This document shows positions 3,229-60,380 of a stretch of DNA of 64,000 nt, in pieces (position 1 is the stretch's first letter; each line of letters starts with the position of its first letter). The position numbers and the translations under genes were made by a program. Under the pieces are notes generated by a model, which was given only the letters and a program-made list of their open reading frames with translations, was not told the origin of the DNA and did not search any database. Origin of the DNA: Mobula hypostoma. Taxonomy: Eukaryota. The stretch lies in the NCBI RefSeq assembly GCF_963921235.1, contig NC_086097.1, positions 102,612,001-102,676,000 of the forward strand. The letters run 5' to 3'.

Positions 3229-3373
3229 CTTTATGGGATCAAACTATGAATGTTGTTGCAACAGCGTTCATCCTGGCAAGTGGAATTATTCCATCGGTCC
3301 ATAGTCTGTTAGTAGAAAGCGTTTTGGGAGTTTGTTTGAGTAGATACAAAATGTTTGTTCTTCTTTTGTATAG

Positions 3374-3481
3374 CTGGATTGCGTCAAATTTTCTGTGAAG
3401 TTGTACTTCACCAACCTCCAGGCTCGGATCAACCTTGCCTGGTCAGCAAATTAATGTTAGCTGACACCAAATTGTGGAAAG
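3374..3481 (+). CDS. UBR1: UBR1 coding exon (108 bp), [36 protein letters not shown](G)
   Basis: ttcttttgtatag acceptor, G|gtgagt donor; resembles human FRQIFCQ...PCLISRLMLWDAKLYKG. Confidence 0.92.
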
Positions 3482-39400: not shown

Positions 39401-42400
39401 AGGCTATCTACAAGAAGGATCAGAGGCGTCTCTATTTCCTGAGGAGACTGAGGTCCTTTAACATCTGTCGGATGATGCTGAGGATGTTCTACGAGTCTGT
39501 GGTGGCCAGTGCTATCATGTTTGCTGTTGTGTGCTGGGGCAGCAGGCCTGAGGATGGCAGACACCAACAGAATCAACAAACTCATTCGTAAGGCCACTGA
39601 TGTTGTGGAGATGGAACTGAACTTTCTGACGGTGGTGTCTGAAAAGAAGATGCTGTCCAAGTTGCATGCCATCTTGGACAATGTCTCCCATCCACTACAT
39701 AATGTACTGGTTGGGCACAGGAGTACATTCAGCCAGAGACTCATTCCACCCAGGTGCAACACAGAGCGTCATAGGAAGTCATTCCTGCCTGTGGCCATCA
39801 AACTTTACAACTCCTCCCTTGGAGGGTCAGACACCCTGAGCCAATAGGCTGGTTTATTTCCTGAACTTATTTCCTGGCATAATTTACATATTACTATTTA
39901 ATTATTTATGGTTTTATTACTATTTAATTACTTATGGTGCAACTGTAATGAAAACCAATTTCCCCCGGGATCAATAAAGTATGACTATGACTATACACAA
40001 ATATAATCGACATTTGTATTCAATTCCATTAACAATTAACATTCTGTTAGCTTTCCTTATCAGTTCCAGTATTTATGTTAGGCATCGTCTTCAATTCACA
40101 TTTAGCTTGGTCAACTAGATTGTTCTACCTGTCAGTTCTCCAATCTTTCAGCACAAATGCTCTTGTTTTATTTTTCATGTCAACATGGGCAATGTCATGA
40201 ATTTCTTCATAGTTCTCCTTTTATGCAATCTTTTCCAACTAGTTTAACTGTCTGTATAACTTTGCAGCTTCCCTGTACCATCTTCACAATTTGTAGGACA
40301 GTAAGTGATGTTCAACCATACTAACCAAGTATATCATTATTCATCACGTCCAGTGATTTTTTTGAACTTGACCTTGTTCTGTTTTGAAACCCATTTGTAA
40401 GCCAGGTGCTTCCCAGCAATATGTTGTGAACACAAGGAAGTCAGGTTTATTGCTGAATATATTCCACTTCTGTAGGTGAAAAAGACATGAACCTGGCTTT
40501 CTTAAAGCTCCCTTCTTCCCTTATTTTAATCATTCATGAGATATCAGTGTTAACATCAAACTCAGCATTTATTGCTCATCAATTGTTGTCCAGTCTGTAG
40601 TGGCAGTGTTATTCCTCAGTGCTGTTAGGTAGGAGTTCCCAGAAATTTGACCCACCAACAATAAAAGTGAAACTAATGAATCACCTGCATTTCTCTAGCC
40701 TTAGAATTAAGATATAGGAGCAGAAGTAGGCCATTGGGCCCTTTGAGTCTACTCTGCCATTCAATCATGGGCTGATCCAATTCTTCCAGTCATCCCCACT
40801 CCCCTGCCTTCACCCCATACCCTTTGATGCTCTGGCTAATCAAGAACCTATCTATCTCTGCCTTAAATGCACCCAATGACTTGGCCTCCACAGCTGCTCA
40901 TGGCAACAAATTCCGCAGGTTTGCCACCTTCTGACTAAAGTAATTTCTTTGCATCTCTGTTCTAAATGGACGTCCGTCAATCCTGAAGCCATACCTTTTT
41001 GTCCTAGAATCCCCTACCATGGGAAATAACTTGGCCATATCTAGCCTTTTAACATTCGGAATGTTTCTATGAGATCCCCTCCCTTATTCTCCTGAACTCC
41101 AGGGAATACAACCTAAGAGCTGGCAGACATTCCTCATACGGTAACCCTTTCATTCCTGGAATTATTCTTGTGAATCTTCTCTGAACCCTCTCCAATGTCA
41201 GTATATCCTTTCTAAAATAAGGAGCCCAAAACTGCACACAATACTCCAACTGTGGTTTCATGATTGCCTTATAGAGCCTCAATTTCACATCCCTGCTCTT
41301 ATATTCTATACTTCTAGAAATGAATGCCAACATTGCATTCATCTTCTTCACAACCAATTCAACCTGGAGGTTAACCTTTAGGGTATCTTGCACAAGGACT
41401 CCCAAGTCCCTTTGCATCTTTGCATTTTGGATTCTCTCCCCATCTAAATAATAGTCTGCTCATTTATTTCTTCCACCAAAGTGCATGACCATACACTTTC
41501 CAACTTTGTATTTCATTTGCCGCTTCTTTGCCCATTCCCTTAAACTATCTAAGTCTCTCTGCAGGCTCACTGTTTCCTCAACACTACCTGCTCCTCCACC
41601 TATCTTTCTATCATGGGTAAATTTAGCCACAAATCCTTTAATACCGTAGTCCAAATCATTGATATAATTGTAAAAAGCAGCAGTCCCATCACCGACCCCT
41701 GTGGAACTCCACTGGTAACCAGTAGCCAGCCTGAATAGGATCCCTTTATTCCCACTCTCTGTTTTCTGCTGACCAGTCAGTGTCCTGACGAAGGGTCTCA
41801 GCCTGAAACGTTGGCTGTACCTCTTCCTAGAGATGCTGCCTGACCTGCTGCATTCACCAGCAACTTTGATGTGAGTGCTCCAATTAATCCAGTTTTGAAC
41901 TCCAGTGGTAATCTTGCCCTTTTGACCATCAGATGTCAAAAAGTAGTAGAATTCACACTACAGTTTGAGAAGGAGAAGCTAAAGTCGAATGTGTCAGTAC
42001 TAAATGGAGTAAAGGAAATTACTGAGGCATGAGAGAAAAGCTGTCCAATGTTGATTGGAAGGGGACGTGAGCAGGGATGACAACAGCACAGCAATGGCTG
42101 GAGTTTCTCGAGCAATTTGGAAGGCACGGGCAAAATACTTCCAAAAGATGAAGGAGAATTCTAAAGGGGAATGAGACTAAGAAGGGAAGACTTATGTTTT
42201 CATAAAAGCAAAAGAGAGGGTATATAATGTCTCAAAAATTAGTTGGAAAGTAAAGGATTGGGAAACTTATGAAACCAACAGAAGACAACTAAAAAGCCAA
42301 AAGAGAGAAAAGATGAGGGTAAGCTGGCCAATAATATAAAAGAGGATACAAGAAGTTTTTCAGATATATGAAGAGTGACCAGTAAGTGTTGACGGCTGGA

Positions 42401-45400: not shown

Positions 45401-48400
45401 GGCAGACTCAATGGGCCAAGTGGCCTAATTCTGCTCCTATGTATGGTCTTAGTTAGATTCTTTTGTTGGAGGTGGTTGTTACCTGGTATTAGTATGGCCG
45501 TGGATGTCACTTGCTGTTATCGCCCCCAGCATGAATGTGTTGCACCATGCTACATTAGAAAGCATGAATGGAGTTGAATATTGCAATCATCAGAGAACAT
45601 TTCACTCCAGAACTGCTGAGGATGATTGGACCTTTAAGGCATTGCCCTGGGAACTTTTCCACTGGCATTCTGGGGCTGGGATGATTCACCTCCTGCAACT
45701 ACAACTGTCTTCCTTTGTGCACAGTATCAAGTAGAGTAGATAAAGAAGAAACAGGTAGCTGTAACTTGCAGTTCTGTCAGTATCTGATTGACTCAGCGAC
45801 ATGCTCAGCTTAATGGAAGAAGTTGGTTTAAATGTAAAGTTGTTTTACTTTTGTATTTAATCTCAATTTTTGCATGAGAGTCATTTAATATATTAAAACA
45901 ATGAAACAGCTTAACTTAAAATTGTCCAATCTGTTAATGAGTTTTTAATTGCCTTTTATATATTGCAGGATGTAATCCAGCAGACTAATATTTTAATAGA
46001 CGAATTACTCCACCTCATTATTATGGTTGTTGGTAAGACTTCATTTTATTAATTAAAGGCTGAATGTAATGTACAAATGAGTCCAATTAGAGTTCCAGCT
46101 GAATCCAATTCAGTGAAAAACCAGATGATACACAAAGCATTTGTCGCGTAAATTCAAACTAATAGATGATGGCTCATGCTAATGCTTCAGATTAACAACT
46201 TGTTTAAATATATCTGATAGGAAAAACAATAGCAGACTATAAACCAGCATTAGAGTATAAGAAATTGAGCAGGACTTAGTATAGTCAACAGCCCTCTTAT
46301 GCTGATGGTGTAGAACATTAAATAGAGTATACTAAATGGTCCCTCTCTTGAGCCTAGATCTGATCAGTGACATCAACGCCACTTTCAATAACCTGCTTTC
46401 AATAACCTTTACTTACATTAAAAATTGCTAGCATTGGATATATAAGCTTGTTCACCACCATACTCTAAGCTACATATTTCCAGATTGTCCATCCTCAGAA
46501 AGTGGTCATTCTAACTCATCAGTTTAAATGAATAAACCTAATTATGCCATTCTGTTCTTGCATCCATCATGAGTGAAAGATCCTCTCCGGTCTTGACTGT
46601 TAGTGCCCTCAAGAATCTTAAAGTTTCGTTAAGAAGCTGTTAATTCTTCTAACACAAATACAGTCCCACCCCCTCAATTAATTTAATTAACCTTGGCACT
46701 GCTTCAGACGTTCCGGAGTTTGGAGTTCAATTCCGGTGCAATTCTATAACGAGTCCTTGCCTTTGAATGCGTGGGTTTTCCCTGGGTGCTCTGGTTTCCT
46801 CCCATAGTCCAAAGGCTTAGCGATTAATTAGTCATGGTAAATTGTCCCATGATTAAGTTGGGGTTTCTCAGGGGGTTGTTGGGGCAGCGAAGGGCCTACT
46901 CCGTGCTGTATTGCTAAATTTACAAAGAACAAACTCCTGTGTTCGAATCCAGCCGGCTCCCTTGCACGCTTTCCATCTGTGCTGGGTTGAGTGTTGAGCT
47001 AGCAACTTGGCCTCGTAAGAATAAGAAAGCCTGCTTTAAAAACAACGCCATCATGACAGCGTCCCGATGACTCCACTCGGAGTTGAGGGCTTTCTTCTTC
47101 TTCTAAATAAATAAAAATCTGTTGTGAATTGTCTGTATTGCAGTTATTTCATCCTCAGTTAAAGGCACGAAAATTTAATTCTAGGGTTAGTCTTACCAAT
47201 GCTATGTAGGCCTGCAGGACTACCCTATTTTGTTTTTGTTAGAAACCTTTGAGTCAATATTTCTTTTGGCTTGTTTGTGGGTAACTAGGGAATAATGTTC
47301 TGATTTTGTTTCCTGAGTGAAGATGCTGAGATCCCTGTGTTCATCAGCATTCTACAATTTCTCTAAACAGGCTTCTGATCTTATATTCTTTCAAGACTCA
47401 CATTTCCCCAGATTATATTCAATCTGCAAGATTTTTTTAGCCTCTTATTTAATCAATCAGCATACACTTGAGAGGCAGATGACTCTTGGCCTGAAAACTA
47501 TTTGGTGTAGGCTCTAATGTGTTAGATGCAGAATTTATGTAACATTTTAATTGCAGTCCAAGTTTTCTATCCTGAGTCATAAACAATGAAAATGGGCCCT
47601 TTGTCCCAACTGGTCCATACTAACCAAGATCAACATCTAAGCTGGTCTCATTTGCCCTTATCCATCTGATCCTTTCCTGAATACCTTTTAAATGTTGTTA
47701 CTGTACCTGCCTCAACCACTTTCTCTGGCAGCTCATTCATGTACTAACCACTCTCTGGGTGAAAAAGTTGCTCTTCAGATTTCTATTAAAGCCTTTTTTT
47801 CTCCTTAAACCTTTGCACTTTAGTTCTTGCAACTCATGCTGGAGGAATTCAGCTGGCCAGGCAGCATCTATGGAAAAAAGTGCAGTTGATGTTTTGGACT
47901 GAGACACTTCATCAGGTCTGGAGGAAAAAGTTGAGGAGTCAGTGTAAGAAGGTGGAGTGATGGGAGGAAAAACACAAGGTGATAGGTGGAACAGGGAGGC
48001 TGGGGGGAGGGGTGAAGTAAAGAGCTGGGAAGTTGATTGGTGAAGGAGATACAGGACTGGAGAAAGGGGAATCTGATACGAGAGGACAGAAGGCCATAGA
48101 AGAAAGAAAAGAGGGAGGAGCACCAGAGGGAGGTAATGGGCAGGTCAAGGAGATAAGGTGAGAGAGGGAAAGGGGAATGGTGAAGGGTTGGGGGAGGGGG
48201 AATGACTGGAAATTTGAGAACTCAATGTTCACGCCATGAGTTTGCAGGCTACCCAGATGGAATATAAGGTGTTGCTCCTCCAACTCGGGTGTGGCCTCAT
48301 CGCAACAATGGAGGAGACCATGGACGAATGGACAAGGAAGTCACGTAGGAAGCGATTCTGTGGAAAGCAGAAAGTGGACGGGAGGGAAAAATGTGCTTGG

Positions 48401-51400
48401 TGGTGGGATCCCGTTGGAGGTGGCAGAAGTTATGGAGAATTATGTGCTGGACATGGAAGCTGGTGGGGTGGTCGGTGAGAGCAAGAGGAGCCCTATCTCT
48501 GGTGGGGTGCGGGAGGATGGGCTAAGGCAGATGTGTGCAAAATGGAAGAGATGCAGTTGAGGGCAGTATTGTTTGTGATTGGAATGGTTGGATTTCCAGC
48601 ATCTGCAGATTTTTCCTTGTTTTCAATTGGAAGTCTGCCATTTCTAACAGGGTCCCCTCACCAAGCACATCTTTCCTCCACCCCCCCCCCATTTTCTGCT
48701 TTCTGCAGGGATCGCGGTCTATGCGACTTCCTTGTCCATTCATCCCTCCCAGCTGCTGTCCTTCCTGCACAACCTTGCAAGCAAAACACATGCTATACCT
48801 GCCCCTACAGCTCCTCCTTCACTACGATTCAGGGCCCCAAGTGTTCCTTCCTGGTGAGGTGTTACTTCACCTGTGAGTCTAGCATCACTTATTGTATCTG
48901 GTGCTCCCAGTATGGCCTCCTGTATATTGCCAAGTGCCTACACTCTATCTGCCAGAAAAAGCGAGATCTCCCAGTGGCCATCCATTTTAATTCCACTTCC
49001 CATTCCCATTCCGACCTGTCCATCCATGGCCACCACTACTGTCGCGATGAGGCCGCACTCAGGTTGGAGGAGCAATGCCTTATATTTATCTAGGTAGCCT
49101 CTAACCTGATGGCATAAACATCAATTTCTTGAACTTCCGGTAATGCTGTCCCCGCGCCCCCCCCCCCCCACCTTCACCATTGCCTACTAATATTTCTCTC
49201 TCTCACCTTACCTGCCCATCTCCTCCCTCTGGTGCTCCTCCCTCTTTTCTTCCATGGTCTTCTGTCCTCTCCTATCAGATTCCCCCTTCAGCCTTGTATT
49301 TCCTTCACCAATCAACTTCCCAACTCTTTATTTCACCCCTCACCCCTCACCCCCACTCCTGTTTCACCTATCACCTTGTGGTTCTTCCTCTTCTGCCCCA
49401 CCCTTCTTACTCTGACTCCTCATCTTTTCTCCCCCAGTTCTGATGAAAGGTCTTGGCCCGAAACATCGGGTGTACTCTTTTTCATGATGCTGCCTGGCCA
49501 ACGTTTTGTGTGTCTTGCTTGGATTTCCAGCATCTGCAGATTTTCTTTTGTTTGTGATGACTCTAGTTCTTGATTCCACATCCCTGGGAAATTATTTGGA
49601 GGTGAGTGAGCGAAGCTCAAGGTTTGAAACGGGAGTGGGGCTTTTCGGAACTTTTGACAGACTTGAGGTATTGCGAACAGTTACTTGTTTGGAGGTGAGG
49701 GAGGTGAGCACAAGCTCTGAGCTCTTGGAACTTTTTGGTGGGCTTGAAATATTGTAGTTTATTAGGGATTTGGCAAAGTTCTATAAAAAGAAGTTGGGTT
49801 TAAGCGAAGTGATCATTGTGTGAGTGGCCAGTGTCAGAGTGGAGCCCCCAGGGCTTTGGCAAGAAGGGGTGGAGGCAAAGGTAAGTTTCTGGTAAGCTTC
49901 CTTTCTTTGCCTAGCTAAAGAAGTGAGAGACCTTCTGTCTGCTTGATAACTAAATATGCGTGAACTCATTACTCAGGGAACTGGAGCTGAAGTTGGATGA
50001 CCTTCAGCTCATATGTCCAAATAAGGAGGTGATAAATAAGAGCTACAGTGAGCTAGTCACCTCTAACTTGCAGGAGGCAGGTAGCTGGGTGACTGTAAGG
50101 AGAGGGAGAGGGAAAGGGAATAGGCAGATGGTGCAGAGTACCCTTATGGCTGTTCCCTTCAATAACAGATATACCACTTTGGGTACTGTTTGGTGGGGGT
50201 GGGTGGTTAACCTACCGAGGAAAGCCGCAGTGACCAGGTAACTGGAACTGAGCCTGGTTCAGAAGGGAACGGGGGAGAAGAGGAGTGTAGTGGTGATGGG
50301 ACATTTAGTCGTTCGGGGAGCAGACAGGAAGTTCTGTAGACCTGAATGAGACTCTCGGATGGTATGTTGCCTCCCAGATGCTAGGGTCAGGGATGATTGG
50401 GTCCACAGCATTCTAAAGGGAGAGGGTAAGCAGCCAGAGGTTGTGATATAAAGACATGGACAGGAAATGGAATAAGGATCTGAAAAGAGAATATTGGGAG
50501 CTAGGTAGGAAGCTGAAAAGCAGAACTCAATGGTAGTAATCTCAGGATTGCGGCCTGTGCCATGTGCCAGTGAAGGTTAGAACAAGATGATTTGGTAGAT
50601 GAATATGTGACTGAGGAATTTGTGCAGGGGCATGGTTTTGGATTTGTGGATCATTGGGATCTCTTCTGGGGAAGTATGACGTGTATAAAGGATGGGTTAC
50701 TCCTGAACTCGAGGGGGAGTAATACAGTTGACCTTCACTAATCCGACTACCTGTAATCCGGTTCCTTCGATAATCCAGCACTGATTATGCTTAATGTGAT
50801 CCTTCTGTAATTTGGCCTTTTCACTAATCCAGCACTCCTCAGGTCTCAGTGGTGCCAGATTAGTGAAGGTCAACCTGTATCTTTGTGGGCAGGTTTGCCA
50901 GAGCTGTTGGGAAAGATTTAAACTAGTTTGGCAGGGGGGATGGGAATCAGTGACAGGGCAGAGGATGGGGCATTTGGTGTACAGCTACTTGTAGTTGTAG
51001 CTTGTGAGTAATGGCAGGCAGTTAATGGAGTAAAATTCCAGTCAGTGGTAAGGGTTGAAATTTTGTCTATTTTTGTGCAAGAAGTATCAGGAACAAGTGT
51101 GATCAACTTGCAGCATAGTTCAGTGCATGGGTCTGTGGCCATTACAGAGACTTGCCTGTCACAAGGGCAGAAATGGCTGCTGGATGTTCTGGGTTTTAGT
51201 TGTTGCAAAAGGGACAGGGAAGGAAATAAGAGGTGGGAGAATGGCACAGCTAATCAGGGATGGTAACACAGCTGCACAAAGGGAGGACATCCTGGAGGTA
51301 ATGAAGGGGTTTTCTATTGAATCATTGTGGATGGAAGTCAGAAACAGGAAGGAAGCATTCACTCTATTGGGAGTATTCTGTAAACCCGCCCCCCCCCCCC

Positions 51401-54400
51401 CCATAACAGAAGGGACACTAAAGGACAGATTGGTAAGTACAATTTGGAAGGGTGCAAAAATATCAGGGTGGTTCTCATGAGTGGCCTGAACTTCCCTGAT
51501 ATTAATTGGCACCTCTTTCGTGCAAACGATTTAGATGGGGTAGAATTTGTTAGCTGTGTGCAGGAAGGATTCCGGACACGGTATGTAGACAAGCTGACTA
51601 GAAGAAAGATCAAATTGGATCTGGTTCTAGGCAACGAACCTGATCAGGTATCAGATCTCTCTCAGAGACACTAACTACAACTCCCTGACCTTTACTATAG
51701 TGTTGGACAGGAATAGGAGCAGACAGTATGGGAACATATTTAATTAAGGGAGAGGAAATTATGGTGTGATTAGGCAGGAACTTGAGAGCATAAATTGCAA
51801 ACGGATGTACTAGGAAATCAACACCAAAAATGTGGAAGTTGTTCAAGGAGCACGTATGGGGTTTGAGATAGCTTTGTTCCCTTCAGGCAGGGAAAATATG
51901 GTAGGGTGAAGGAACCATGGTTGACAAGAGATATGGGACATCTTGTCAGGAAGAAGGAGAAAGCTTACTTAAGATTTAGTAAGCAAGGATCAGACAGGAC
52001 TCAAGAGAGCTACAATGTCATCAGGAACGAGCTTAAAAATGGCCAAGGAGAGCTAGAATGGTGCACAAGATGGTCTTGGCGAGTAAGATTAAGGAAGACC
52101 ATAGTGTTCCACATTTCTATCAAGAACAAGAGGGTGAGTAGAGTGAGGGTAGGATCGTTTAGGGAAAGAAAAGAAAATGTGCCTGGTATTGGAGGAGGTA
52201 GGGAATGTCCTTAATGAATAACAACACACATAAAAATTGCTGGTGAACGCAGCAGGCCAGGCAGCATCTCTAGGAAGAGGTACAGCCGACATTTCGGGCT
52301 GAGACCCTTCTTCAGGTCCTGATGAAGGGTCTCGGCCCGAAACGTCGACTGTAGCTCTTCCTAGAGATGCTGCCTGGCCTGCTGCGTTCACCAGCAACTT
52401 TTATAAGTGTTGCTTGAAATTCCAGCACCTGCAGATTTCCTTGTGATTGCGTCCTTAATGAATATTTTGCTTTGATATTAACCAGTGAGCCAGACCATGA
52501 CATTTGTGAGTACAGTGTAAAACAGGCTGCTGTGCTGGAACATGTCAGTGCTAAGGAGGAGGTTGAGCTGGAACCTTTGAAAAACATTCGGATAGGCAAG
52601 GCCCTGGGGCTGTATGGAATATACCTCAGGTTGATATGGGAAGTGAGGGAAGAGACTACTGCACTTTTGACAATGATCTTTGTGTCCTCACTGGTCACAG
52701 GACCAGTTCCACTTGATTGGATGATTCACAAATGGCTTGCCCATAGAAGGCAGAGCGTTTTCTGCCTGGAAGTCAACAAGATGTTTTATAGGGATCTGTT
52801 CTGGGGCTTTTCTCTTTGGGCCAAATGAAAATGAGTGGTGACTTGATGGAGGTGTACAAGATGATAAGAGGCAGAGATCAAGTGGATAGCCAAGGACTTT
52901 TACCATGGTAGAAGTGACTAATATGAGAGGGCATAAGTTTAAGGTGATTGGGGTATGTATGGGGGGGGGTAAAATAAGTGTGATTATTGCCTGGAACACT
53001 GGCAAGGGTGTAGGTAGAGGCAGGTAAATTAGGAACATTAAATATATTCTTAAAGAGGTACATTTACGATGGAAAAAATGGAGGGCTTTGTAGGAGGGAA
53101 GGGTTAGACTGATCTAGGAAATTTTACAAGGTCAACACAAAAATCATGGGCCAAAGGGCCTGTATCTTGCTATGTGGTTCTATGTTGAGACTGTATGCAT
53201 TCACCCTATCTATGCCTCTAATTGATATTCTATTCTTTTAACCTGTTGGCATATTAGTTTGAATACCAACCTTCCACCATCATAGACTAATAAGTTTACA
53301 TCTTGTTTCCATGCAGGGGAGAGGTATGTTCCTGGAGTAGGCCATGTGATGAAAGATGATGTCACTCTCAGAGAGGTGATCCATTTACTGTGTATTGAAC
53401 CAATGCCTCACAGTGAACTGGCAAAATTATTACCTGAGAACGTGAGTGTACCTAGCTCATCAAATATTTTTCTTGACACTTTGAGCTGTATATTTAAAGT
53501 AGGATAAAGATAGTACCTCCAGTGATACTGACCATTTGTCAACTCATGCTGCTTCAGACTATTTGAAAGCAATTGAATTGCTATCAGACCATATGACGTA
53601 GGAGCATAATTGTTGCTTCTGGGGTGCCACCGACAAGGCAACTTGTGCATGCAACTATAATGGATACCACTGTACTCCCGTTTCAGCCTGCTACAGCTGA
53701 GAACCACAACTACATTTAAGGTCTGTACAGTCATTTTAATGTGACTTTAAAAATCGATCATTACTTAAAATTACAGAACTCGAACAGACCCTGGTCACGG
53801 ATTCTCCTTAAGATGGTAGAAGAGGGGATGCCGAGTTGAACCAATAGTTCACTTAAAGAAGCACATCTTTTGACTTCCAATACGAACCATCTTGTTTGCA
53901 AACATACAGTCTTTGGTAAATAAAATTGAAGATCTCAACTAAGGTGATGTATCAGAGGGACATTAGGACCACTTGCCTCTTTTGTTTCACAGAATCTTGG
54001 TTAATCCTTTCCATTCTGGATGCAGCAATTGAGATCAATGGGTTCACGATACACCGCCAAGATAGGACTGCTGAGTCTTTGAAAAGCAGGGGAGGAGGAC
54101 TGTGCTTAATGATCAACTCTTTGTGGTGTATAAATGTGGCAGTGGTATCCCAGACCTGTTCACCATACCTGGAAAACCTCGCGATCAAGTGTCGTCCATT
54201 TTACCTCCATGTGAGATTTCAGCAATCATTCTGGTTTGGTGTACATTCCACCTCAGGCTAATGAAAGACAGTCTCTAGACAAACTGAGCAATGAAAGAGC
54301 ACATCCTGATGCCTTCCCCATCATTTTGGGGTCTTCAGCCGAGCCAACTTGAAAAAGTCTCTGTTACCATCAAGTCACTTGTAGTACCAGCAGAAACAAT

Positions 54401-57400
54401 ACACTGGACCACTGTTATACCACCATCAAAGAGTGCTTACCATGCTATTCCATGCCAAACACTTTGGATAGTCTCAACACCTGGCTGAATATAGGTAAAA
54501 ACTGAAGACTGTAGCACCAGTAGTCAGGACCAAAAATGTATGGACAAGGAAGGCACAGAAGCATTTACAGGACTGCTTTGAATCGGTGGACTGGACAGTA
54601 TTCAGGGATTCGTTTTTGAATTTGAATAAGTATTCCACAGCTGTCACTGTCTTCATTAGAGCCTGCTTGGATAATTGTGTGCCTACAAGAACATACTATA
54701 CATACCCAAATCAAAAGCCATGGATGAAGCAGAAGGTTCATAGTCTGCTGAGGGATAGATCTGTGGCACTCAAGTCTGGCAACCCAGGTCTCTACAAGAA
54801 AGCTGGGTATGATTTGCAGAGGGCTATTCAAGAGCTAAGGAACAGTTCTGAGCAAGGTTGGAGATGACATCAACTCTGGCAGGGTTTGCTGGCCATTACT
54901 TCCTACAAAGCAAAACCCAACATCATGAATGGCAGTGATGCTTCACTCCCAAGCAAGCTCAACGCCTTTTTTGCACGCTTTGCAAGGGAGAATAAAACTA
55001 CGCCTGTGCAAATCCCTGCAGCATCCAGTGACCCTGTGATCTTTATCTCGGAGGCCCTCTTTCAAGAGGGTAAGCCCTCACAATGCAACAGGTCCTGACG
55101 AGGTACCTGGTAAGGCTCTGAGAACCTATGCCAACCAACTGGTGGTGGTTTCCAAAGACATTTACAATCTCTCATTGCTACAGTTGGAAGTTTTGACCTG
55201 CAATAATTATACCAGAAGAGTAGTGTGAGCTGCCTTAATGACTGTCGTCCAGTAGCACTAACATATACTGTGATGAACAACAGGAATTCTGCAGATGCTG
55301 GAAATTCAAGCAACACACATAAAAGTTGCTGGTGAACGCAGCAGGCCAGGACGCTGTGATGAAGTGCTTTGAGACGTTGGTTTTGGCTAGAATCAACTCC
55401 TGCCTCAGCAAAGACCTGGACCCACTGCAATTTGGAAGACCACAGTCTGTGCTGATTGGAAATAATATCACCATCTCACTGAAATCAACACTGGGCACTT
55501 CAGGGATGTGTGCTTAGTCCATTGCTTTAGTCTCTCTACACCCATGACTGTGTGATTAGGCACATCTCAAATGCCATCTGTAAGTTTGCTGACAATACCA
55601 CTATTGTTGGCAAAATCTCAGATGGCGACAGGGGATGTGCAGGAGCAAGATACACCAGATAGTTGAGTGGTGTTGCAGTCAACATCAGTAAGACCAAAGA
55701 GTTGATTGTGAACTTCAGAAAGGGTAAGATGAGGGAATGCTTCGTTCCTCCTAGAGGGATCAGAACTGGAAATAGTGAGCAATTTCAAGTTCTTGGTTGT
55801 CAGTATGTCCAAGGAGCTAACCTGGACCCATCATATCGATGCAGCTAAAAAGAAGGCAAGACAGCGTCTATATTTCATTCGGGGTTTGAGGAGATTTGGT
55901 TTGTCACTAAAGACACTCTCAAATTTATATAGATTTAACTGTGGAGAACATTCTTACTGGCTGCATCACTGTCTGGTATGGGGGGTTGGGGGCTACTGCA
56001 CAAGATCGAAGTAAGCTGCAGAGAGTTATAAACTTAGTCAACTCTATCCTGGGCTTTGTAATAACCAGGACATCTTCAAGGAGCAGTGCCTCAAAAAGGT
56101 GGTGTCCAACATTAAAGACTCCTATGAACCAGGACATGCCCTCTTCTCATTTCTACCATCAGGTAGGAGGTACAGAAGCCTGAAGGCACACACTCAACAA
56201 TTCAGAAACAGCGTCTTCCCCCTGCCATTGAATTTCTGAGTGGTGTGACATTGAGCCCATGAACACTACCACATTACTATTTTTTTTGCACTAATTTAAC
56301 TATTTAATATAGTCATACTGTGGTTCATTTTTCTCTATTATGTATTACTTTCTACTGCTGCCGCAAAATTTTCAAATTTCACTACATATGCTGATGATAT
56401 TAAACCTGATTCTAATAATTAGGCTATTCGGCCCATTGAGTCTGCTCCACCATTCCATCATGGCTGATTTATTATCCCTCTCAATCATGTTTTCCTACCT
56501 TCTACCCGTAACCTTTGATGTCCTGACTAATCAAGAACCTATCAATCTCCACTTTTAAGTACACCCAATGACTTGGCCTCCGCAACTTTCTGCGGCATTG
56601 AATTCCACAGATTCACTATCCTCTGGTTAAATAAATTCTTCCTCATCACTGTTCTAAATGGAGTCCCTCTATTCTGAATCTGTGCCTTCTGATCCTAGTC
56701 TCCCCCAATATAGGAGACATCTTCTCAACATCCACTCCATCTAAGCCTTTCAATATTCAATAGGTTTCAGTGATATCTCCCTTCATTCTTCTAAACTCCA
56801 GCAAGTACAGGCCTCGAGCCATCAAATGCTCTTCATGCATTTACCCTTTCATTTGCAGAATCATTCTGGTGAACCTCCTCTAGACCTTCTCCAATGCCAA
56901 CACATCATTTTTTAGATAAGGGGCCCAAAACTGCTCTCGATACTGCAAGTGAGGCCTTACCAGTGCCTTATAAAGCTTGCTTTTATATTCTAATCCTCTT
57001 GAAATGAATGCTAGCATTGCATTTGCCTTCCTCACCACTGACTCAACCTGCAAGTTAACCTTCAGGGAATCCTGCACAAGGACGCCCAAGTCCCTTTGCA
57101 CCCCTGATTTTTTTGAAATTTTTCCACATTTAGAAAATGGTCTATGCCTTTATTCCTTCTACCAAAGTGCATGACTATACACTTCTCTACAGTATATTCT
57201 ATCTGCCACTTCTTTGCCCACTCTATTTAAGTCCTTCTGCAGACTCACTACTTCCTCAACACTGCCTGTCCCTCTAGCTATCTTCATGTTGTCTGCAAAC
57301 GTGGCCACAAAGCCATCTTAACAGAACAGGTTGACATTGCTAATTCTCCCACTAACCTTGCCCCTTTGCCCGGTTAGTCACTCCTCCTTATTCTGTCCCT

Positions 57401-60380
57401 GGTCCAGTCTCTCCCATAGTTCACACAGTTTGCCCTCCTATTCTGCAGTTCTTGCGAGTTCACCATTTACACACCCCAACAGTAAAACATTTGCTAGCTT
57501 GGTTAATCAAAACAATTCCTTCAGTTAACGTGCTCTACTGGTTTGTAATTCATACAAATAAGGATTCTAGACACAGACATTCCAAACAGTTTCATTTATT
57601 TCCACGCACTGTTTGTAGACAACAGAACGACCCCAAAAGACCCAAGGGACAGTTTGGGGCATCCTAAAGTGATGCTTGGGTTTGTGGGAGCAGATGCACT
57701 ACACCCTACGCAGGTAGATTTAATCTCTCAGTTTGGCTTTGCTGAGAGCTGTCAATGGTGAATGGTTATATTGGAAAGTTAACAACAAAGTGTGTTATGG
57801 AGAAAGTATATTGGTAAATTCTTGTACGTCAAAATCAAAATCAGGTTTATTATCACCGGGATGTGATGTGAAATTTGTTAACTCAGCACCAGCAGTTCAA
57901 TGCAATACATAACTTAACAGAGAAAAAAATAACAGTAATAAATAAACAAGTAAATCAATTACATATATTGAATAGATTACAAAAATAGTGCAAAAACAGA
58001 AATAGTGTATATTTTTTTAAAAAGTGAGGTAGTGTCCAAAGATTCAATGTCCATTTAGAAATCAGATGGCAGAGGGGAAGAAGCTGTTCCTGAATCACTG
58101 AGAGTGTGCTTTCAGGCTTCTGTACCTCCTACCTGATGGTAACAGTGAGAAAAGGGCATGCACTGGGTGCTGGGGGTCCTTAATAATGGACGCTGCCTTT
58201 CTGAAACACCACTCCCTAAAGATGTCCTGGATACTTTGTAGGCTAGTACCCAAGATGGAGCTGACTAAATTTACAACCTTCTGCAGCTTCTTTTGGACCT
58301 GTGCAGTAGTCCCTCCATACCAGACAGTGATGCAGCCTGTCAGAATGCTCTCCACAGTACACCTATAGAAGTTTTTGAGAGTATTTGTTGAGATGCCAAG
58401 AAGTTTTTTGAGTGTATTTGTTGACATGTTTGTTTTCATTTGTCTATTTGTAAACACTTAGTTTCTTCACAACTTTCGGGCAGCTTTTGCTCTTTTTTTC
58501 ACCTGGCACTAAATAAAACCCCTTGCACTAACATGCTGTTACGGCTTACGAGCTGTTTTATTTTTAACTGGTGACCCTCGTCAGGCACACTTACCCACTC
58601 GTGATAATGAGGTGTGACACCATCAGAGGTATTAATGGGGGAACAAAGACATGGTGGATGAACTTAAGTATTTTGTGTCAGTTTTAACTGTGGAAGACAC
58701 TAGCAATATGCCAGATATTGGAGAGTGTCAGGGGCAGAGAGTGCAGTTGCTATTACTATGCAGAAGGTGTTTGTGAAGCTAAAAGATTGGAAAGGGTAGT
58801 GAACTACACCCCAGGGTTCTGAAAGAGGTCGCCGAAGAGATTGCAGGAGACATTAGTAGTTAACTTTCAAGAACCACCAGAATCTGGAATGGTTCCTGTG
58901 CACTGAAAAATTGCAAATGTTACTCCACTCTTTAAGAGGTGGTTGAGGGAAGCAGGCAGGAGAAAGAACAGGCCAGTTAGCCTAACCTTAGTGGTTGGAA
59001 ATCCATGATAAAGAATGAGGTTTCAGACTTCTTGGTGGCACATGATAAAGTAGGTCAAAGTCATCATGGTTTCCTGAAGGGGAGATCTCACCTGACAAAT
59101 CTGTTGCAATTGTAATTGCACCCTGAATTAAAATTCCAGTTTATTATTGTACTTAATACCTGTGGTGTTTGGTGTATTTTTTTTGGCTTAGGATGTAATC
59201 AGTGCCAATGTTACTCATTGCTGGCTGCTTTAATGAAGGAAATAGGAATTTGTTAAGAGTTGTGATGAAGGGTTTCAGCCCAAAACGTTGACTGTCCATT
59301 TTCATCCATGGATATTGCTTGACCTGATGAGTTCCTCCAGCATTTTGTGTATTAGAGTAGAAATGTAAGCCGTTTTGATGTGACTGTATCTCCAATTTAT
59401 GTGTTTTTATATCTGCTACTGTCCTGTGTGATGACACTGTTTTGGGAGAATATCAGGTACAATTTTAAATACTGTGAGTGATGTAAATGATCACCATGAA
59501 AATGTAATTATTATCAGCCACCCTTTGGGGGAAGCATCCAAAAATGCCATTTCTGTTTTCAAAATGTTTTTACAGGAGAACAATGAAACTGGTTTGGAAA
59601 AAGTTATACATCAAGTGGCTACATTTAAGTAAGTCTAAACTTCTGTAGAATATACTAGTATAATTATTTGAGCAAAGGCTAATTTTTTTCGGTGCTAATA
59701 TGCTGGTTTAGTTATTGAAGAATTAAATTTTCTCAGTAAAAGTCATTTTCTTTTTGGAAAATTAGAAATATTTTCATTCATAGGTACTCTAAAATATTGC
59801 TTCCACATACCTTAGGACTTTTATCACCCTCATTAAGATATGCTCTTGATCAATAGAAGAAAGGTCACCAGAGACGATTCCTTTCAGAGCAATTAGGCTG
59901 TGGGGTGCATCTCATCAGCCAGCTTCCAACTGTTTGTTATAATCCATAGGCTAGAAATTTATGAGCTGTTCTATTGCTTTCAATGCAAATTTGAGCTCAA
60001 GTACTTTGGAAGTTCCTTCCTATCACTAAAACACAATGTAGTCGATCTTTATAGATTATTTTAATCTTCTCCAGCATGTCAGATTGAATCTGCAAAGTTT
60101 CAGTTTTACAAAGTGATCTTTGTTGAGGTGACTGATTGGAATCAATTTCTGCTCAGAATTCCAAAAGCAGAGTCAAGTCACATTTGCATCCTCAAAGTGC
60201 TTGTAACTGTTATGGGTATTGGAGGACTGTATATACACTCCACAGGAAGAGCTTCATGACCGCTGTGCTCTCTCTAGAAAGCCAGGGTTAACTGGGCATG
60301 GTGTTTATGAGCTGAAGCCAGAATGTCAGAAGCACTTCAATCTCTTTTTCTACCATTACTACAAGTCACAACAAACAAAG
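3374..60380 (+). CDS. UBR1: E3 ubiquitin-protein ligase UBR1 (N-recognin 1), internal part: 15 coding exons, gene extends beyond both window edges
   Basis: 15 AG/GT-bounded exons with matching phases, 1559 nt, no stop codons. Motifs match UBR1 ([48 protein letters not shown]). ERYVPG, IEPMPHS and ENNETGLE favour UBR1 over UBR2 (ERFSPG, IKPMAHS, ENKETGME as recalled). Confidence 0.92.
3634..3910 (-). mobile_element. V-SINE-like tRNA-derived SINE
   Basis: Reverse complement of the V-domain (GTGCTCCAGTTTCCTCCCACAGTCC), tRNA-like head, AAATAAA-type tail. Confidence 0.75.
4512..5180 (+). mobile_element. V-SINE-like element split by a 400-bp insertion
   Basis: tRNA-like head at 4512-4591 (gtggttag A box, gagttcaatt B box); body resumes at about 4992 (tcccactatccaaagac...ttaattagtcattgtaa). 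Confidence 0.65.
4592..4991 (-). mobile_element. Candidate solo LTR inserted in a SINE
   Basis: TGTT...AACA termini, 400 bp, minus-strand AATAAA near 4650; TSD imperfect. Confidence 0.45.
5364..5452 (+). CDS. UBR1: UBR1 coding exon (89 bp), (G)[29 protein letters not shown]
   Basis: ttttgaatgcag acceptor, gtaagt donor; phase 1 start fits the previous exon. Confidence 0.95.
6607..6705 (+). CDS. UBR1: UBR1 coding exon (99 bp), [33 protein letters not shown]
   Basis: caacag acceptor, gtaagt donor; conserved DDHDR and VQxFTVPTL motifs. Confidence 0.97.
7060..7214 (+). CDS. UBR1: UBR1 coding exon (155 bp), [51 protein letters not shown](K)
   Basis: ttttgttag acceptor, AA|gtaagt donor (phase 2). 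Confidence 0.95.
7964..9283 (+). mobile_element. 5'-truncated, decayed Nimb/I-group LINE with RNase H and C-terminal CCHC finger
   Basis: IYTDG, ICSD and [16 protein letters not shown]ase H motifs; RLRLGH...CEEC...EHV..C; GGCGGT/ACCGCC 3' hairpin; GAA-rich tail; perfect 16-bp TSD GAAGAGACTTCAAAAA at 7948-7963 and 9284-9299. Confidence 0.9.
9585..9808 (-). mobile_element. V-SINE-like element
   Basis: gtgggaggaaagcagagcatccagaggaaaccaacgc is the reverse complement of the V-domain. Confidence 0.75.
10816..12983 (+). mobile_element. Full-length decayed Tc1 (DD34E) transposon with long IR/DR-type inverted repeats
   Basis: TA|CAGTTGC...GCAACTG|TA; about 200-bp imperfect inverted repeats; transposase remnants from 11171 to 12783 (WTDETK, QQD-34 residues-E in DLNPIE) with stops and frameshifts. 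Confidence 0.92.
11834..12431 (-). mobile_element. Non-coding retroposon of about 600 bp nested in the Tc1 transposase
   Basis: Interrupts the transposase between its two catalytic Asp motifs; minus-strand 5' end GGCGGGAGGAGAAGAT, 3' end AATAAA then CATAATCTAA; TTAG on both sides; CpG-rich. Confidence 0.7.
13135..13353 (+). mobile_element. CR1 LINE 3' end, same subfamily as 60763-63581
   Basis: Near-identical to about 63367-63581 ([10 protein letters not shown] plus 3'UTR); (TATTGTC)n tail. Confidence 0.9.
13519..13618 (+). CDS. UBR1: UBR1 coding exon (100 bp), (K)[33 protein letters not shown]
   Basis: ttttttgcag acceptor, CAG|gtgtgt donor; YxLISKP and FLEGF motifs. Confidence 0.96.
13980..15200 (+). 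mobile_element. Old, highly decayed CR1 fragment
   Basis: Remnant ITETW, G-N/D-F, AFY..RTN and KSPGP motifs with many stops. Confidence 0.55.
15790..16345 (+). mobile_element. Decayed Rex1/Babar LINE RT fragment
   Basis: CANQL, NDY, DPLQF and FNTIIP remnants. Confidence 0.6.
16370..20790 (+). mobile_element. Near full-length decayed CR1 LINE (ORF1 with Zn finger/coiled coil and SGNH esterase; ORF2 APE-RT)
   Basis: ORF1 from 16678 (CxxC..CxxC, GDS, LPGA, HIGTND); ORF2 [39 protein letters not shown]; (TTTCTATG)n tail; many frameshifts. Confidence 0.95.
17129..17360 (-). mobile_element. RTE-clade LINE 3' fragment inserted in the CR1 ORF1
   Basis: Minus strand encodes [20 protein letters not shown] (C2H2 finger, one frameshift); (GAA)n tail; TSD AGGGTACTCT / AGGGGACTCT. 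Confidence 0.8.
21196..21832 (+). mobile_element. Penelope-like element 3' fragment (GIY-YIG C-terminus plus pseudo-LTR), with a CR1 tail inserted at 21482-21558
   Basis: GMNIDFSNF end, pyrimidine-rich UTR, hammerhead motif, GATGCTGCCTGG..GCTGAGTTCC..CAGCATTTTGTGTG repeat; the CR1 tail has a CTATA TSD. Confidence 0.85.
21696..21733 (+). ncRNA. Minimal type I hammerhead ribozyme motif (PLE-associated)
   Basis: CAGTC-CTGATGA-agagtctcggcct-GAAA-TGTC-GACTG: perfect 5-bp stem I and core; stems II and III mutated. Confidence 0.7.
22886..22985 (+). mobile_element. Short PLE pseudo-LTR fragment with degenerate hammerhead
   Basis: gtcCTGATGAagggtctc..caaaaggtcgag followed by the PLE repeat. Confidence 0.7.
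23624..23752 (+). CDS. UBR1: UBR1 coding exon (129 bp), [43 protein letters not shown]
   Basis: ttttatgcag acceptor, gtaagt donor; RQxGQH and EWC motifs. Confidence 0.96.
25240..25810 (+). mobile_element. Chimeric CR1 fragments with a short antisense retroposon tail at about 25275-25358
   Basis: [20 protein letters not shown] and [11 protein letters not shown], then a [17 protein letters not shown] segment matching 19020-19185. Confidence 0.75.
25840..26900. mobile_element. Rex1/Babar 3' fragments, + strand (to about 26540) then - strand
   Basis: KFLGVHI, LVKKAQ and LPSGRRY on +; CITVW...RKALQ on -. Confidence 0.75.
27041..27233 (+). CDS. UBR1: UBR1 coding exon (193 bp), [18 protein letters not shown]...[17 protein letters not shown](G)
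   Basis: ctacatgcag acceptor, G|gttggt donor; AYKECH, CGHS and SIHLPLSR motifs. Confidence 0.96.
28665..28918 (+). mobile_element. V-SINE-like element
   Basis: GAGTTCAAACC B box, GCGTGGGT..CTCCCACAGTCCAAAGA, (TAAA)n tail. Confidence 0.75.
29290..32560 (+). mobile_element. Decayed Rex1/Babar LINE interrupted by a CR1
   Basis: [26 protein letters not shown] and KFLGVNI remnants; continues after 32340 (IKDPSH, RLKGSF). Confidence 0.75.
30487..32334 (+). mobile_element. Young 5'-truncated CR1 LINE with an open RT ORF (30541-32241)
   Basis: 566-aa uninterrupted RT ([28 protein letters not shown]); (TCTTATGG)n tail; GACTT at both junctions. Confidence 0.96.
33578..33639 (+). CDS. UBR1: UBR1 coding exon (62 bp), (G)[20 protein letters not shown]
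   Basis: gttttag acceptor, gtaagt donor; phase 1 to 0 fits both neighbours. Confidence 0.93.
34543..34653 (+). CDS. UBR1: UBR1 coding exon (111 bp), [37 protein letters not shown]
   Basis: ttcttgcag acceptor, CAG|gtattg donor; PLRCLVL and MWRRNG motifs. Confidence 0.97.
34761..35018 (+). mobile_element. V-SINE-like element
   Basis: TGGTAGTGTAGTGGTTAG A box, GTTCAATTCC B box, GTTTCCTCCCACAG, AATAAA tail. Confidence 0.8.
35668..35733 (+). CDS. UBR1: UBR1 coding exon (66 bp), [22 protein letters not shown]
   Basis: cctttcccttcaag acceptor, CAG|gtacag donor; [11 protein letters not shown] motif. Confidence 0.96.
36457..37325 (+). mobile_element. Penelope-like element 3' part with an inverted pseudo-LTR at its 5' end
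   Basis: Inverted repeat copy at 36457-36566; decayed GIY-YIG ([41 protein letters not shown]); degenerate hammerhead at about 37226. Confidence 0.88.
38291..38392 (+). CDS. UBR1: UBR1 coding exon (102 bp), [34 protein letters not shown]
   Basis: tatattacag acceptor, AAG|gtaagg donor; MDPNxFL and RYEL motifs. Confidence 0.96.
38918..39994 (+). mobile_element. Rex1-type LINE 3' part nested in an old antisense CR1 (about 38440-40290)
   Basis: [57 protein letters not shown] and (ATGACT)n tail. Confidence 0.9.
40706..41890 (-). mobile_element. CR1 LINE 3' portion, antisense, with a PLE fragment inserted at about 41782-41876
   Basis: [19 protein letters not shown] and YINDLD motifs on the minus strand. 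Confidence 0.9.
41782..41817 (+). ncRNA. Hammerhead ribozyme motif (PLE-associated)
   Basis: gtc-CTGACGA-agggtctcagcct-GAAA-CGTT-ggctg; core intact, GUU triplet, short stem I. Confidence 0.6.
41930..45450 (+). mobile_element. Cluster of decayed CR1 ORF2 fragments, with an antisense CR1 3' piece at about 42884-43250
   Basis: Repeated [29 protein letters not shown] motifs; TCTTGTGGTCT and TATGGTCTT tails at about 44405 and 45450. Confidence 0.88.
45969..46032 (+). CDS. UBR1: UBR1 coding exon (64 bp), [21 protein letters not shown](G)
   Basis: tattgcag acceptor, G|gtaaga donor; phases fit. Confidence 0.94.
46695..47116 (+). mobile_element. V-SINE-like element with a second SINE-like insert (46920-47102) in its tail
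   Basis: V-domain at 46768-46815; insert has GTTCGAATCC B box, (TTC)n tail and CTAAAT TSD. Confidence 0.75.
47833..48570 (-). mobile_element. Penelope-like element 3' fragment, antisense
   Basis: [22 protein letters not shown] on the minus strand, pseudo-LTR with degenerate hammerhead at about 47882-47920. Confidence 0.88.
48587..49557 (+). mobile_element. Penelope-like element 3' fragment, sense
   Basis: [38 protein letters not shown] (GIY-YIG region); pseudo-LTR with hammerhead. Confidence 0.9.
49435..49472 (+). ncRNA. Hammerhead ribozyme motif (PLE-associated, partly decayed)
   Basis: cagtt-CTGATGA-aaggtcttggccc-GAAA-CATC-gggtg; core intact, stems weakened. Confidence 0.55.
50725..50877. 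mobile_element. 153-bp Tc1/mariner-superfamily (Tigger/pogo-like) MITE nested in CR1
   Basis: TA TSD; TIRs CAGTTGACCTTCACTAATC / GATTAGTGAAGGTCAACCTG; internal TAATCC repeats. Confidence 0.85.
52283..52318 (-). ncRNA. Mirror hammerhead motif on the minus strand
   Basis: gac-CTGAAGA-agggtctcagccc-GAAA-TGTC-ggctg. Confidence 0.6.
52313..52351 (+). ncRNA. Minimal type I hammerhead ribozyme, intact consensus
   Basis: caggtc-CTGATGA-A-GGGT(CTCG)GCCC-GAAA-CGTC-GACTG; GUC cleavage triplet; palindromic ACGT in place of stem III. Confidence 0.78.
53317..53441 (+). CDS. UBR1: UBR1 coding exon (125 bp), (G)[41 protein letters not shown]
   Basis: tttccatgcag acceptor, gtgagt donor; UBR1-type motifs. 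Confidence 0.97.
53700..56416 (+). mobile_element. Near full-length decayed Rex1/Babar LINE (APE-RT)
   Basis: [80 protein letters not shown] tail. Confidence 0.88.
55278..55353 (-). mobile_element. 76-bp PLE terminal fragment inserted in the Rex1/Babar element
   Basis: Matches the 52221-52450 family; perfect 10-bp TSD CTGTGATGAA at 55268-55277 and 55354-55363. Confidence 0.88.
56417..57318 (-). mobile_element. CR1 3' portion, antisense
   Basis: [12 protein letters not shown] and [10 protein letters not shown] on the minus strand. Confidence 0.88.
57829..58428 (-). mobile_element. Rex1/Babar 3' end, antisense
   Basis: [29 protein letters not shown]; (GATTTT)n tail; internal 31-bp tandem duplication at its 5' junction. 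Confidence 0.88.
58630..59110 (+). mobile_element. Decayed CR1 RT fragment
   Basis: [17 protein letters not shown] and HGFLKG remnants. Confidence 0.8.
59258..59352 (+). mobile_element. Short PLE pseudo-LTR fragment with degenerate hammerhead
   Basis: gtgatgaagggtttcagcccaaaacgttgactg followed by GAGTTCCTCCAGCATTTTGTGT. Confidence 0.7.
59576..59628 (+). CDS. UBR1: UBR1 coding exon (53 bp), [17 protein letters not shown](K)
   Basis: tttttacag acceptor, AA|gtaagt donor. Confidence 0.96.
60278..60380 (+). CDS. UBR1: UBR1 coding exon (103 bp), (K)[34 protein letters not shown]
   Basis: ctctctctag acceptor, AAG|gtaagt donor; GHGVYELK and FYHY motifs. Confidence 0.96.

Follow-up and report, generated by a model that had tools for sequence, protein, structure and literature searches.

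A 230-nt hammerhead-bearing palindrome in the Mobula hypostoma genome as a probable truncated insertion of a Penelope-like element

Layout of the insertion

We describe a short palindromic insertion in a 64,000-nt stretch of the Mobula hypostoma genome (assembly GCF_963921235.1, contig NC_086097.1, positions 102,612,001 to 102,676,000, forward strand) and its relation to the 3'-terminal sequence of a Penelope-like element (PLE) that occurs there in great numbers. This whole stretch is referred to as the window and positions are counted from its first letter; the genome searched for further copies is the window's own, 3.48 Gb in size. Self-comparison of the window sequence delimits the insert as 52221-52450, i.e., 230 nt, and the insert is flanked by a 14-nt direct repeat, GTCCTTAATGAATA, of which the left copy (52207-52220) and the right copy (52451-52464) agree with 0 mismatches, as in a target site duplication (TSD). 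Inside the insert, two inverted arms of 95 nt each (52222-52316 and 52318-52412) are 92% complementary and are separated by a 1-nt spacer. The initial annotation of this DNA had described a perfect 14-bp TSD and two inverted arms of about 95 bp, and both descriptions are borne out.

The insert is asymmetric in that the right arm carries 37 extra nucleotides (52414-52450, plus strand), referred to below as the tail, which lie outside the inverted repeat, are absent from the left arm and are one-sided in sister copies as well. Element positions such as -38 are counted back from the 3' end of the PLE. Judged from the inverted repeat and from BLAST comparisons, the left or inverted arm (52221-52317, minus strand) is the reverse complement of PLE positions ~-38 to -133, without the tail, and 52314-52222 matches a long PLE copy at 95.7% identity on the minus strand. 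BLAST and alignments assign the shared part of the right or direct arm (52318-52413, plus strand) to -133 to -38; it ends in ...GTGTTGC, which we call the proximal end site, and on the plus strand 52316-52449 aligns with 92.5% identity to the 3' end of a long PLE copy. Sister copies begin at the same GCAACACACAT as the inverted arm. Base 52221 is A here, where the family's usual GCAAC start has G, and the last letters of the element read ...GTGATTGC at this locus and ...GTGTTTGC in the family form. As RNA, the 230 nt are predicted to form a single hairpin of -170.1 kcal/mol, compared with a mean of -67.7 for 200 shuffled sequences (z = -20.5; 0/200 as stable).

The parent element

The best 30 matches to a 70-nt query from the tail are mostly non-palindromic and continue upstream of the hammerhead motif described below, and the inverted copies among them have differing inversion places. 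The tail-matched copies stop between 101 and more than 740 nt upstream, and they extend into a reading frame in which a Cys-rich stretch comes before a GIY-YIG motif; in the copy L161 this motif is recognized by the Pfam GIY-YIG model (E 3e-5, 24.7 bits, cutoff 22.6). No PLE reverse transcriptase (RT) was found upstream of three 5'-truncated copies (L161-L164), and the RT was found through a protein search for longer copies. In one of these, L173, a 926-codon open frame matches RVT_1 (E 2.3e-5) and then, at its C-terminal end, GIY-YIG (E 9.2e-4). A YIDD motif and an ADKGG box, which we take to be marks of PLEs, are visible by eye in the same frame, and the frame is followed by a 3' untranslated region of ~430 nt that ends in the arm sequence.

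In a second long copy, L174, the open frame occupies 1113-3815; 279 nt of 3'-end sequence (880-1158) immediately precede this frame and overlap its first part, and the 3' copy itself is at 4288-4638. The upstream partial 3'-end copy is a pseudo-long terminal repeat (pseudo-LTR), a layout judged on two long copies of which L173 is without the upstream copy. When the linker between the RT and the endonuclease is used as a protein query, there are 56,205 first-look candidates. Many of the 150 scored ones are located within open frames 700-926 codons long, a pattern suggestive of a parent family that is very large and probably recently active. By its sequence matches, then, the right arm of the insert represents the final 133 nt of an abundant PLE that encodes an RT together with a GIY-YIG domain at the C-terminus. 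An RT with a C-terminal GIY-YIG domain, pseudo-LTRs and a hammerhead ribozyme within the pseudo-LTR are the features that define an endonuclease-positive PLE in the relevant parts of PMC4209133 and PMC8557442.

Pfam matches to RVT_1, GDSL and ALKBH8_N in L161 and L162 lie kilobases away and probably belong to other long interspersed elements (LINEs). In L162 the matches beside the truncated PLE copy are to GDSL-lipase/OSK (2041-2553, minus strand) and to RVT_1 and ALKBH8_N (2817-3491, minus strand), and they probably represent an unrelated LINE with an esterase domain.

Truncation and inversion across the genome

A search with the 230-nt insert as query returned 4,310 first-look candidates. 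The best 40, which were scored, are near full length, 87-94% identical and have the same ends. In 26 of 30 sister copies the flanks contain direct repeats of 9-19 nt (criterion: 9 nt or more and no more than 1 mismatch), and the flanking sequences differ in all 30. A palindromic query favours palindromes, and the best-40 sample is therefore biased towards copies shaped like the query. Variants confined to the left arm, such as CAGCCGAC, occur in several of the best 30 copies and were considered as traces of a master palindrome; this idea was abandoned because taking the best 40 of 4,310 enriches chance sharing.

A sample blind to the shape of the copies was obtained from a 23-nt word of the tail, which has 14,392 exact matches genome-wide compared with 0 for the reversed control. 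The sample consists of the first 100 listed places of this word, in order along contig 1, mapped onto a long real copy. Half of these copies (50/100) are plain 5' truncations and the other half (50/100) have an inverted piece directly upstream. Distances from the 3' end vary between 31 and 987 nt for the limits of the direct arms and between 61 and 488 nt for the inner ends of those inverted pieces that have their outer end near -38. Roughly symmetric copies number 12, and the architecture seen in the window is found in 8. The outer ends of the inverted pieces are concentrated at the start of the tail, with 40 of 50 between -27 and -58 and 28 of 50 between -34 and -42, while the remaining 10 pieces come from a more upstream segment. 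The centres of the inverted copies differ at the nucleotide level across the sample. Among the sister copies found with the 230-nt query, L006 has extra sequence at its 3' junction, and L022 (G000:C9:167826801-167830025), in which positions 4-230 of the query match on both strands, is a palindrome with a tail on both arms.

The 5' limits of the same 100 copies are not uniform. There are 23 between -120 and -141, compared with 8 between -98 and -119 and 2 between -142 and -163. The cluster at -120 to -141 is made up of 10 plain truncations and 13 inverted copies, and since both kinds contribute, it is independent of inversion. A second, smaller cluster lies between -163 and -171 (8/100), all of whose members start near AATCTCTTAC. 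A sister PLE family, 72-80% identical, can be aligned only from AGTCCTGA, at helix I of the hammerhead, down to the 3' end, with no alignable sequence further upstream. This comparison rests on a 10-sequence alignment and concerns window positions 21655-21840 and 22845-22985 and the copies L125, L021, L090, L010 and L015. The boundary A of the inter-family homology sits in TTAGTCC or CCAGTCC, which we take to fit the initiator-like word YYANWYY.

The proximal end site, similar in sequence to the distal end of the element, is at the base of a predicted stem-loop (AGCAAC...GUUGCU). The word of the arm that ends in GTTGC is followed by a base other than T in 1,543 matches and by T, as in the tail, in 13,613; these are raw counts, in which some of the C cases are maybe mutated tails and tail-less ends that happen to be flanked by T are hidden among the 13,613. 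In the first 100 listed tail-less ends, counted by hand, the next base is A in ~61, C in ~32 and G in ~7, which may reflect the preference of the endonuclease for AT-rich targets that has been reported for PLEs or, for the C cases, mutated tails. Contigs from public sequencing runs placed on the long copy have loose ends both at the full end and ~38 nt before it. At L173:4200-4700, ~40 contigs per run in three runs join a different sequence (CCTGGCCTGCTGAGTTCCTCCAGCATTTTG) just before the tail, and it appears that another family shares only the tail with this PLE. The summed depth over the PLE 3' module is high in runs of three coded organisms and low in those of a fourth.

The centre junction

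A junction word, CTTCRTCAGGTCCTGAYGAAGGG, that spans the commonest centre of the inverted copies has 143 exact matches, ~1% of the number found for a tail word of equal length (14,392). We tallied the state of the two arms in the first 100 of the 143 junction matches listed. Both arms have the unmutated CG form in 62 and both have the matching TG/CA form, referred to as the T-variant, in 17. Mixed junctions have G in the left and T in the right arm (16) or A in the left and C in the right arm (5), which makes 79 symmetric and 21 mixed junctions. Symmetric junctions from two parental variants would be predicted if the palindrome were formed de novo again and again, and in this respect the junction sequences fit arms that were identical at birth and a palindrome that is rebuilt at each insertion. 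Strand-symmetric decay of CpG would give mixed classes of equal size, compared with the 16 (left CG, right TG) and 5 (left CA, right CG) observed.

These results separate the two origins that the initial annotation had put forward. It had offered either an extreme 5'-truncated, inverted PLE insertion or a non-autonomous, ribozyme-bearing, retrozyme-like retroposon mobilised in trans, and had proposed that inversion breakpoints varying among copies would make the insert an ordinary truncated PLE. The breakpoints do vary, over 61-488 nt, and the first of the two origins is supported by the identity of the arm as the 3' end of an element with RT and GIY-YIG and by the variable truncation and inversion of its copies. 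The second finds no support, since the exact centre belongs to a minority of copies, the junctions are symmetric and the repeats are inverted. The genome search with the 230-bp unit, which had been suggested as a way of finding copies that share centre and ends and have their own TSDs, found common ends and flanking repeats of 9-19 nt (26/30). The copies sampled without regard to shape have no fixed centre. The insert is not a mobile unit of its own.

Hammerhead motifs

The centre of the palindrome contains a minimal hammerhead motif on the plus strand (52315-52350), recognized from its conserved boxes and from the features of minimal hammerhead ribozymes given in PMC4209133. The motif consists of CTGATGA (52319-52325), an extra A (52326), helix II as GGGT-CTCG-GCCC (52327-52338), GAAA (52339-52342) and CGTC to C52346, after which the cut is predicted, with the NUH triplet in register. 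G52327 and C52338 form the G10.1-C11.1 pair and ACGU at 52342-52345 provides the palindromic 15.2/16.2. Helix I is formed by GGTC (52315-52318), which comes partly from the other arm, with the 3' strand GACT, i.e., the inversion point strips away most of helix I and leaves GGUC/GACU with 3 Watson-Crick pairs and one G.U. The minus strand, read as the reverse complement, has a decayed motif (52284-52319) composed of GGAC, CTGAAGA (52315 down to 52309), A, GGGT-CTCA-GCCC, GAAA, TGTC and GGCT, with a predicted cut after the complement of 52288; this motif has a G.A mismatch in helix I and has lost the CG of 15.2/16.2 (AUGU). The boxes that the initial annotation quoted for a hammerhead core on each strand are thus present. 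Its description of two hammerheads back to back is true of the DNA, but no single RNA strand carries both, as each has one motif in sense and the complement of the other.

The corresponding sequence of the parent PLE lies in the pseudo-LTR and reads UUAGUC-CUGAYGA-A-GGGUCUCGGCCC-GAA-ACGU-C, followed beyond the predicted cut by GACUG. It shows the four features of minimal hammerheads listed in PMC4209133, namely the extra nucleotide after position 9, the G10.1-C11.1 pair, the palindromic 15.2/16.2 and the consensus families. In the 10-sequence alignment the CUGANGA and GAAA boxes are invariant or nearly so over the two diverged PLE families and the hammerhead is the best-kept block, with C-G in helix I of the sister family where the parent family has U.G. 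The proposed pairs hold in 92.6% of 94 cells, compared with 16-39% when the partners are slid. Covariation was sought in helices I and II, where 0 pairs have changed on both sides and 500/500 shuffles reach the observed values. In these alignments, support for the hammerhead comes from conservation and not from covariation. A contig from one more distant organism has T in place of the C at the cleavage site, which is still an allowed NUH triplet.

A search with Rfam models, as the initial annotation had recommended, called no hammerhead family at the insert: there was none among the 5 matches at E<=10 over 1.7 kb and 0 at the gathering score over the 64-kb window, for models whose sensitivity to motifs without helix III is not established. 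The best match, mir-5681, was rejected as a generic match to a long hairpin, with 42.4 bits against a gathering score of 88. Folded alone, neither motif is the lowest-energy structure, whether in a 56-nt stretch of the plus strand or for the minus-strand motif. An isolated arm is predicted instead to fold GAAGGGU (52327-52333, the end of the core and helix II) onto a downstream (A/G)CUCUUC (52355-52361), which is also present at L173:4540-4600, and by this model such a helix could keep the ribozyme off. The 5' limits of the shape-blind copies do not pile up at the predicted cut (-104), with the 8 of 100 limits between -98 and -119 not stacked on any one base, in a sample that is too small to exclude a modest excess. 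Published minimal hammerheads cleave poorly, either as dimers or with the help of protein (PMC4209133; PMC11167929).

The predicted fold of -170.1 kcal/mol agrees with the suggestion of the initial annotation that the long hairpin would compete with folding of the ribozyme and could silence it. Since the sense motif would be sequestered in the 95-bp hairpin, no ribozyme activity and no host function are expected from it in the pre-mRNA of the UBR1-like gene described below, and the motifs are expected to be passengers from the pseudo-LTR of the PLE.

Surroundings in the window

An exon similar to UBR1 is found at ~53307-53450 on the plus strand, ~860 nt downstream of the insert (53286-53504 compared with PDB 9wbw_A UBR1, E 1.5e-17). 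This placement makes it plausible that the insert is intronic, and the insert probably lies in an intron of a UBR1-like gene with its tailed arm in sense orientation. The initial annotation had placed the insert within a CR1 element. The flanks look like a decayed LINE ORF2 by eye, and 0 of 4 flank frames matched Pfam at either E<=0.01 or E<=10, which leaves the CR1 label unverified.

At least 10 further pieces of this PLE's 3' module, or of that of the diverged sister family, are scattered through the window, with 72-95% identity to a long copy. They are found on the plus strand at 41777-41876, 21684-21831, 22886-22981, 37227-37326, 49441-49555, 59263-59350 and 7775-7864 and on the minus strand at 55276-55350, 36456-36565 and 47837-47914. 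The fragment at 55276-55350 is embedded in another LINE-like frame. The locus is itself of little import, being one of a dozen or so pieces of PLE tail in the window and of many thousands genome-wide, and the insert is very probably without effect in the UBR1-like gene beyond the long intronic hairpin.

Discussion

We consider it very probable that the insert is one dead-on-arrival PLE insertion in which two short copies of the 3' end stand head to head, and that it likely arose in a single event with priming on both strands of the target. One complementary DNA (cDNA) would start at the distal end of the element (...GTGTTTGC) and carry the 37-nt tail, and the second, on the other DNA strand, would have its start at the similar-looking proximal site ...GTGTTGC (C52413). 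After ~133 nt, where the hammerhead has its 5' edge, both cDNAs would end and be joined to each other. Purified protein of a lizard PLE has been reported to cleave and extend both target strands, with reverse transcription from two internal RNA sites spaced by the tail (PMC11167929), and the end and junction statistics of the family agree with the in vitro claim that PLEs prime on both strands from two start sites.

Several points weigh against this account. The match to RVT_1, and that to GIY-YIG in L173, are below the curated Pfam cutoffs, and assignment of the RT also leans on motifs recognized by eye. The steps of the insertion are derived from end statistics together with in vitro work on a lizard PLE. 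The best 40 matches to the insert, if taken alone, resemble a discrete family of mobile palindromes, and the mild asymmetry between the mixed junctions (16 compared with 5) has no explanation in our account. Finally, plain random truncation does not explain the recurrent shape of the insert, as 23 of 100 5' limits fall between -120 and -141.

The clustering of 5' limits, together with the start of the inter-family homology at an initiator-like word, suggests that there may be a short RNA that begins before the hammerhead. We regard it as a tentative and rather doubtful extension that the stubs, instead of having broken off at random, are full-length double cDNAs of an RNA of ~135 nt that starts in the pseudo-LTR just before the hammerhead. 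If true, thousands of mini-palindromes would constitute an in vivo record of the start of PLE transcription and of two-strand priming from two RT start sites. The 5' end of the PLE RNA and cutting by the hammerhead in vivo are questions on which end statistics of the whole family bear.

The same observations bear on three other explanations. It is very improbable, in our judgement, that the insert is a non-autonomous palindromic ribozyme retroposon, similar to a retrozyme or a short interspersed element, that is copied as a unit of 230 nt and mobilised in trans by the PLE enzyme. Such a retroposon would account for the nearly full-length best 40 matches with 87-94% identity, common ends and TSDs and for the exact 23-nt centre common to 143 copies, and a master copy whose arms were unequal is a possible source of the excess of GT over AC in the mixed junctions (16 vs 5); moreover, PLE pseudo-LTR sequences can mobilise other DNA in trans according to the pertinent part of PMC3846280, and vertebrate retrozymes have been proposed as PLE derivatives in the corresponding part of a preprint (bioRxiv 10.64898/2026.07.22.740005). 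The best-40 sample is, however, biased by its palindromic query, and among copies chosen without regard to shape only 8 of 100 have this architecture and the centres vary by nucleotide. Parents of both the C- and the T-variant give symmetric junctions (62 and 17 of 100), the arm runs collinear with autonomous copies, without any sequence peculiar to the unit, and the repeats are inverted rather than tandem, which makes a unit-length RNA with two sense ribozymes impossible. A transposon of the foldback or miniature inverted-repeat transposable element (MITE) type, with terminal inverted repeats and boxes that resemble a hammerhead by chance, shares with the insert little beyond the long inverted arms and the TSD, and we give it almost no credence. 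The asymmetric ends with a 37-nt tail on one side, the variable TSDs (9-19 nt among copies), the occasional extra sequence at the 3' junction (L006) and the graded 5' truncations up to a full RT-endonuclease element are marks of target-primed reverse transcription, and the variation in TSDs, the graded truncations and the full parent element contradict a foldback or MITE transposon.

The main mechanistic rival retains the PLE as the source and differs in how the second arm is made. In snap-back self-priming, an idea of Arkhipova et al. (2013), a single cDNA folds at the edge of the hammerhead and copies itself outwards, and palindromes at inverted junctions are read in terms of self-priming in the portion of PMC3846280 that treats them. 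A short quasi-palindrome, GTCCTGAC, occurs at the junction position in the parent, and the overlapped centre CGTCAGGAC... in L061, L018 and L030 is what pairing at this place would give. A cDNA that copies itself outwards should nevertheless proceed across the tail as far as the primer, so that each arm would have a tail; L022 is such a case, but these are rare. The outer ends accumulate instead where the tail is missing (-34 to -42 in 28 of 50), at a site that is similar to the true 3' end and agrees with the second RT start found in vitro (PMC11167929). The commonest centre, furthermore, leaves ~1 unpaired base, which would be too tight for intramolecular priming. We therefore consider snap-back very unlikely as the source of the palindrome, and priming on both target strands remains our preferred mechanism.

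Comparison with known systems

Two-strand priming has a familiar counterpart in L1 elements, where in twin priming the second target strand primes a second cDNA and a 5' inverted segment results within one TSD. The inverted piece of L1 derives from a region upstream of the direct piece. The insert differs from L1 in that its two arms derive from one and the same 3' region and in that the second cDNA begins at a fixed, sequence-specific site.

The closest similarity is to the insertion units of endonuclease-positive PLEs, which, in the parts of Arkhipova et al. (2013, PMC3846280) and Craig et al. (2021, PMC8557442) devoted to them, share with the insert a head-to-head inverted copy, a tail on one arm, a TSD around the whole, a hammerhead in the pseudo-LTR and heavy 5' truncation. 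In rotifer Penelope elements, as covered in the relevant part of PMC3846280, a direct pseudo-LTR has beside it an inverted one that is shorter by 37 bp, one of the pair may bear a 31-bp tail and the TSD surrounds the whole structure; an inverted pseudo-LTR, a one-sided tail of 30-40 bp and a TSD are summarised for other PLE clades in the corresponding part of PMC8557442. The tail is 37 nt here and 31 bp in Pen2a_Av, and in both cases the inverted arm is shorter by about the length of the tail, going by the passage on that element in PMC3846280. Compared with these units the insert is a miniature of 133 + 97 nt, without an open reading frame or a direct pair of pseudo-LTRs, and its TSD of 14 bp (9-19 nt in sister copies) is longer than the 8-10 bp quoted for rotifer elements in the portions of these sources that mention it.

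The Anolis Poseidon element PAc (Frangieh et al. 2024, PMC11167929) is similar in that two end sites ~37 nt apart bound the tail, with the proximal site at a predicted stem-loop, in that the hammerhead lies ~65-105 nt upstream of the start sites, and in that the inverted arm is the expected remnant of second-strand extension. The work on PAc was done in vitro on another family and does not show a finished insertion, whereas our data consist of genomic footprints alone.

The minimal hammerheads of PLEs (Cervera & De la Pena 2014, PMC4209133) resemble the motif described here in the CUGANGA and GAAA boxes, the G10.1-C11.1 pair, the palindromic 15.2/16.2 (ACGU), the location in the pseudo-LTR, the lack of a real helix III and the shortness of helix I (5 bp long in the parent). 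At 4 bp, helix II is shorter here than in the Schistosoma families of minimal hammerheads, where it has 7-8 bp, and 'Dual min-HHRs ... in opposite strands' have been noted in Schistosoma (PMC4209133). Metazoan non-LTR retrozymes are likewise short, non-coding, hammerhead-bearing and PLE-related and have TSDs, according to the relevant parts of Cervera & De la Pena (2020, PMC7229834) and of Li et al. (2026, bioRxiv). Retrozymes, as these parts present them, are head-to-tail tandems that yield circular RNAs, each copy having a sense hammerhead, whereas the copies in the insert are an inverted pair and neither strand has two sense ribozymes. The architecture of the insert is one already described for PLEs, and this copy is an ordinary and probably inert stub.

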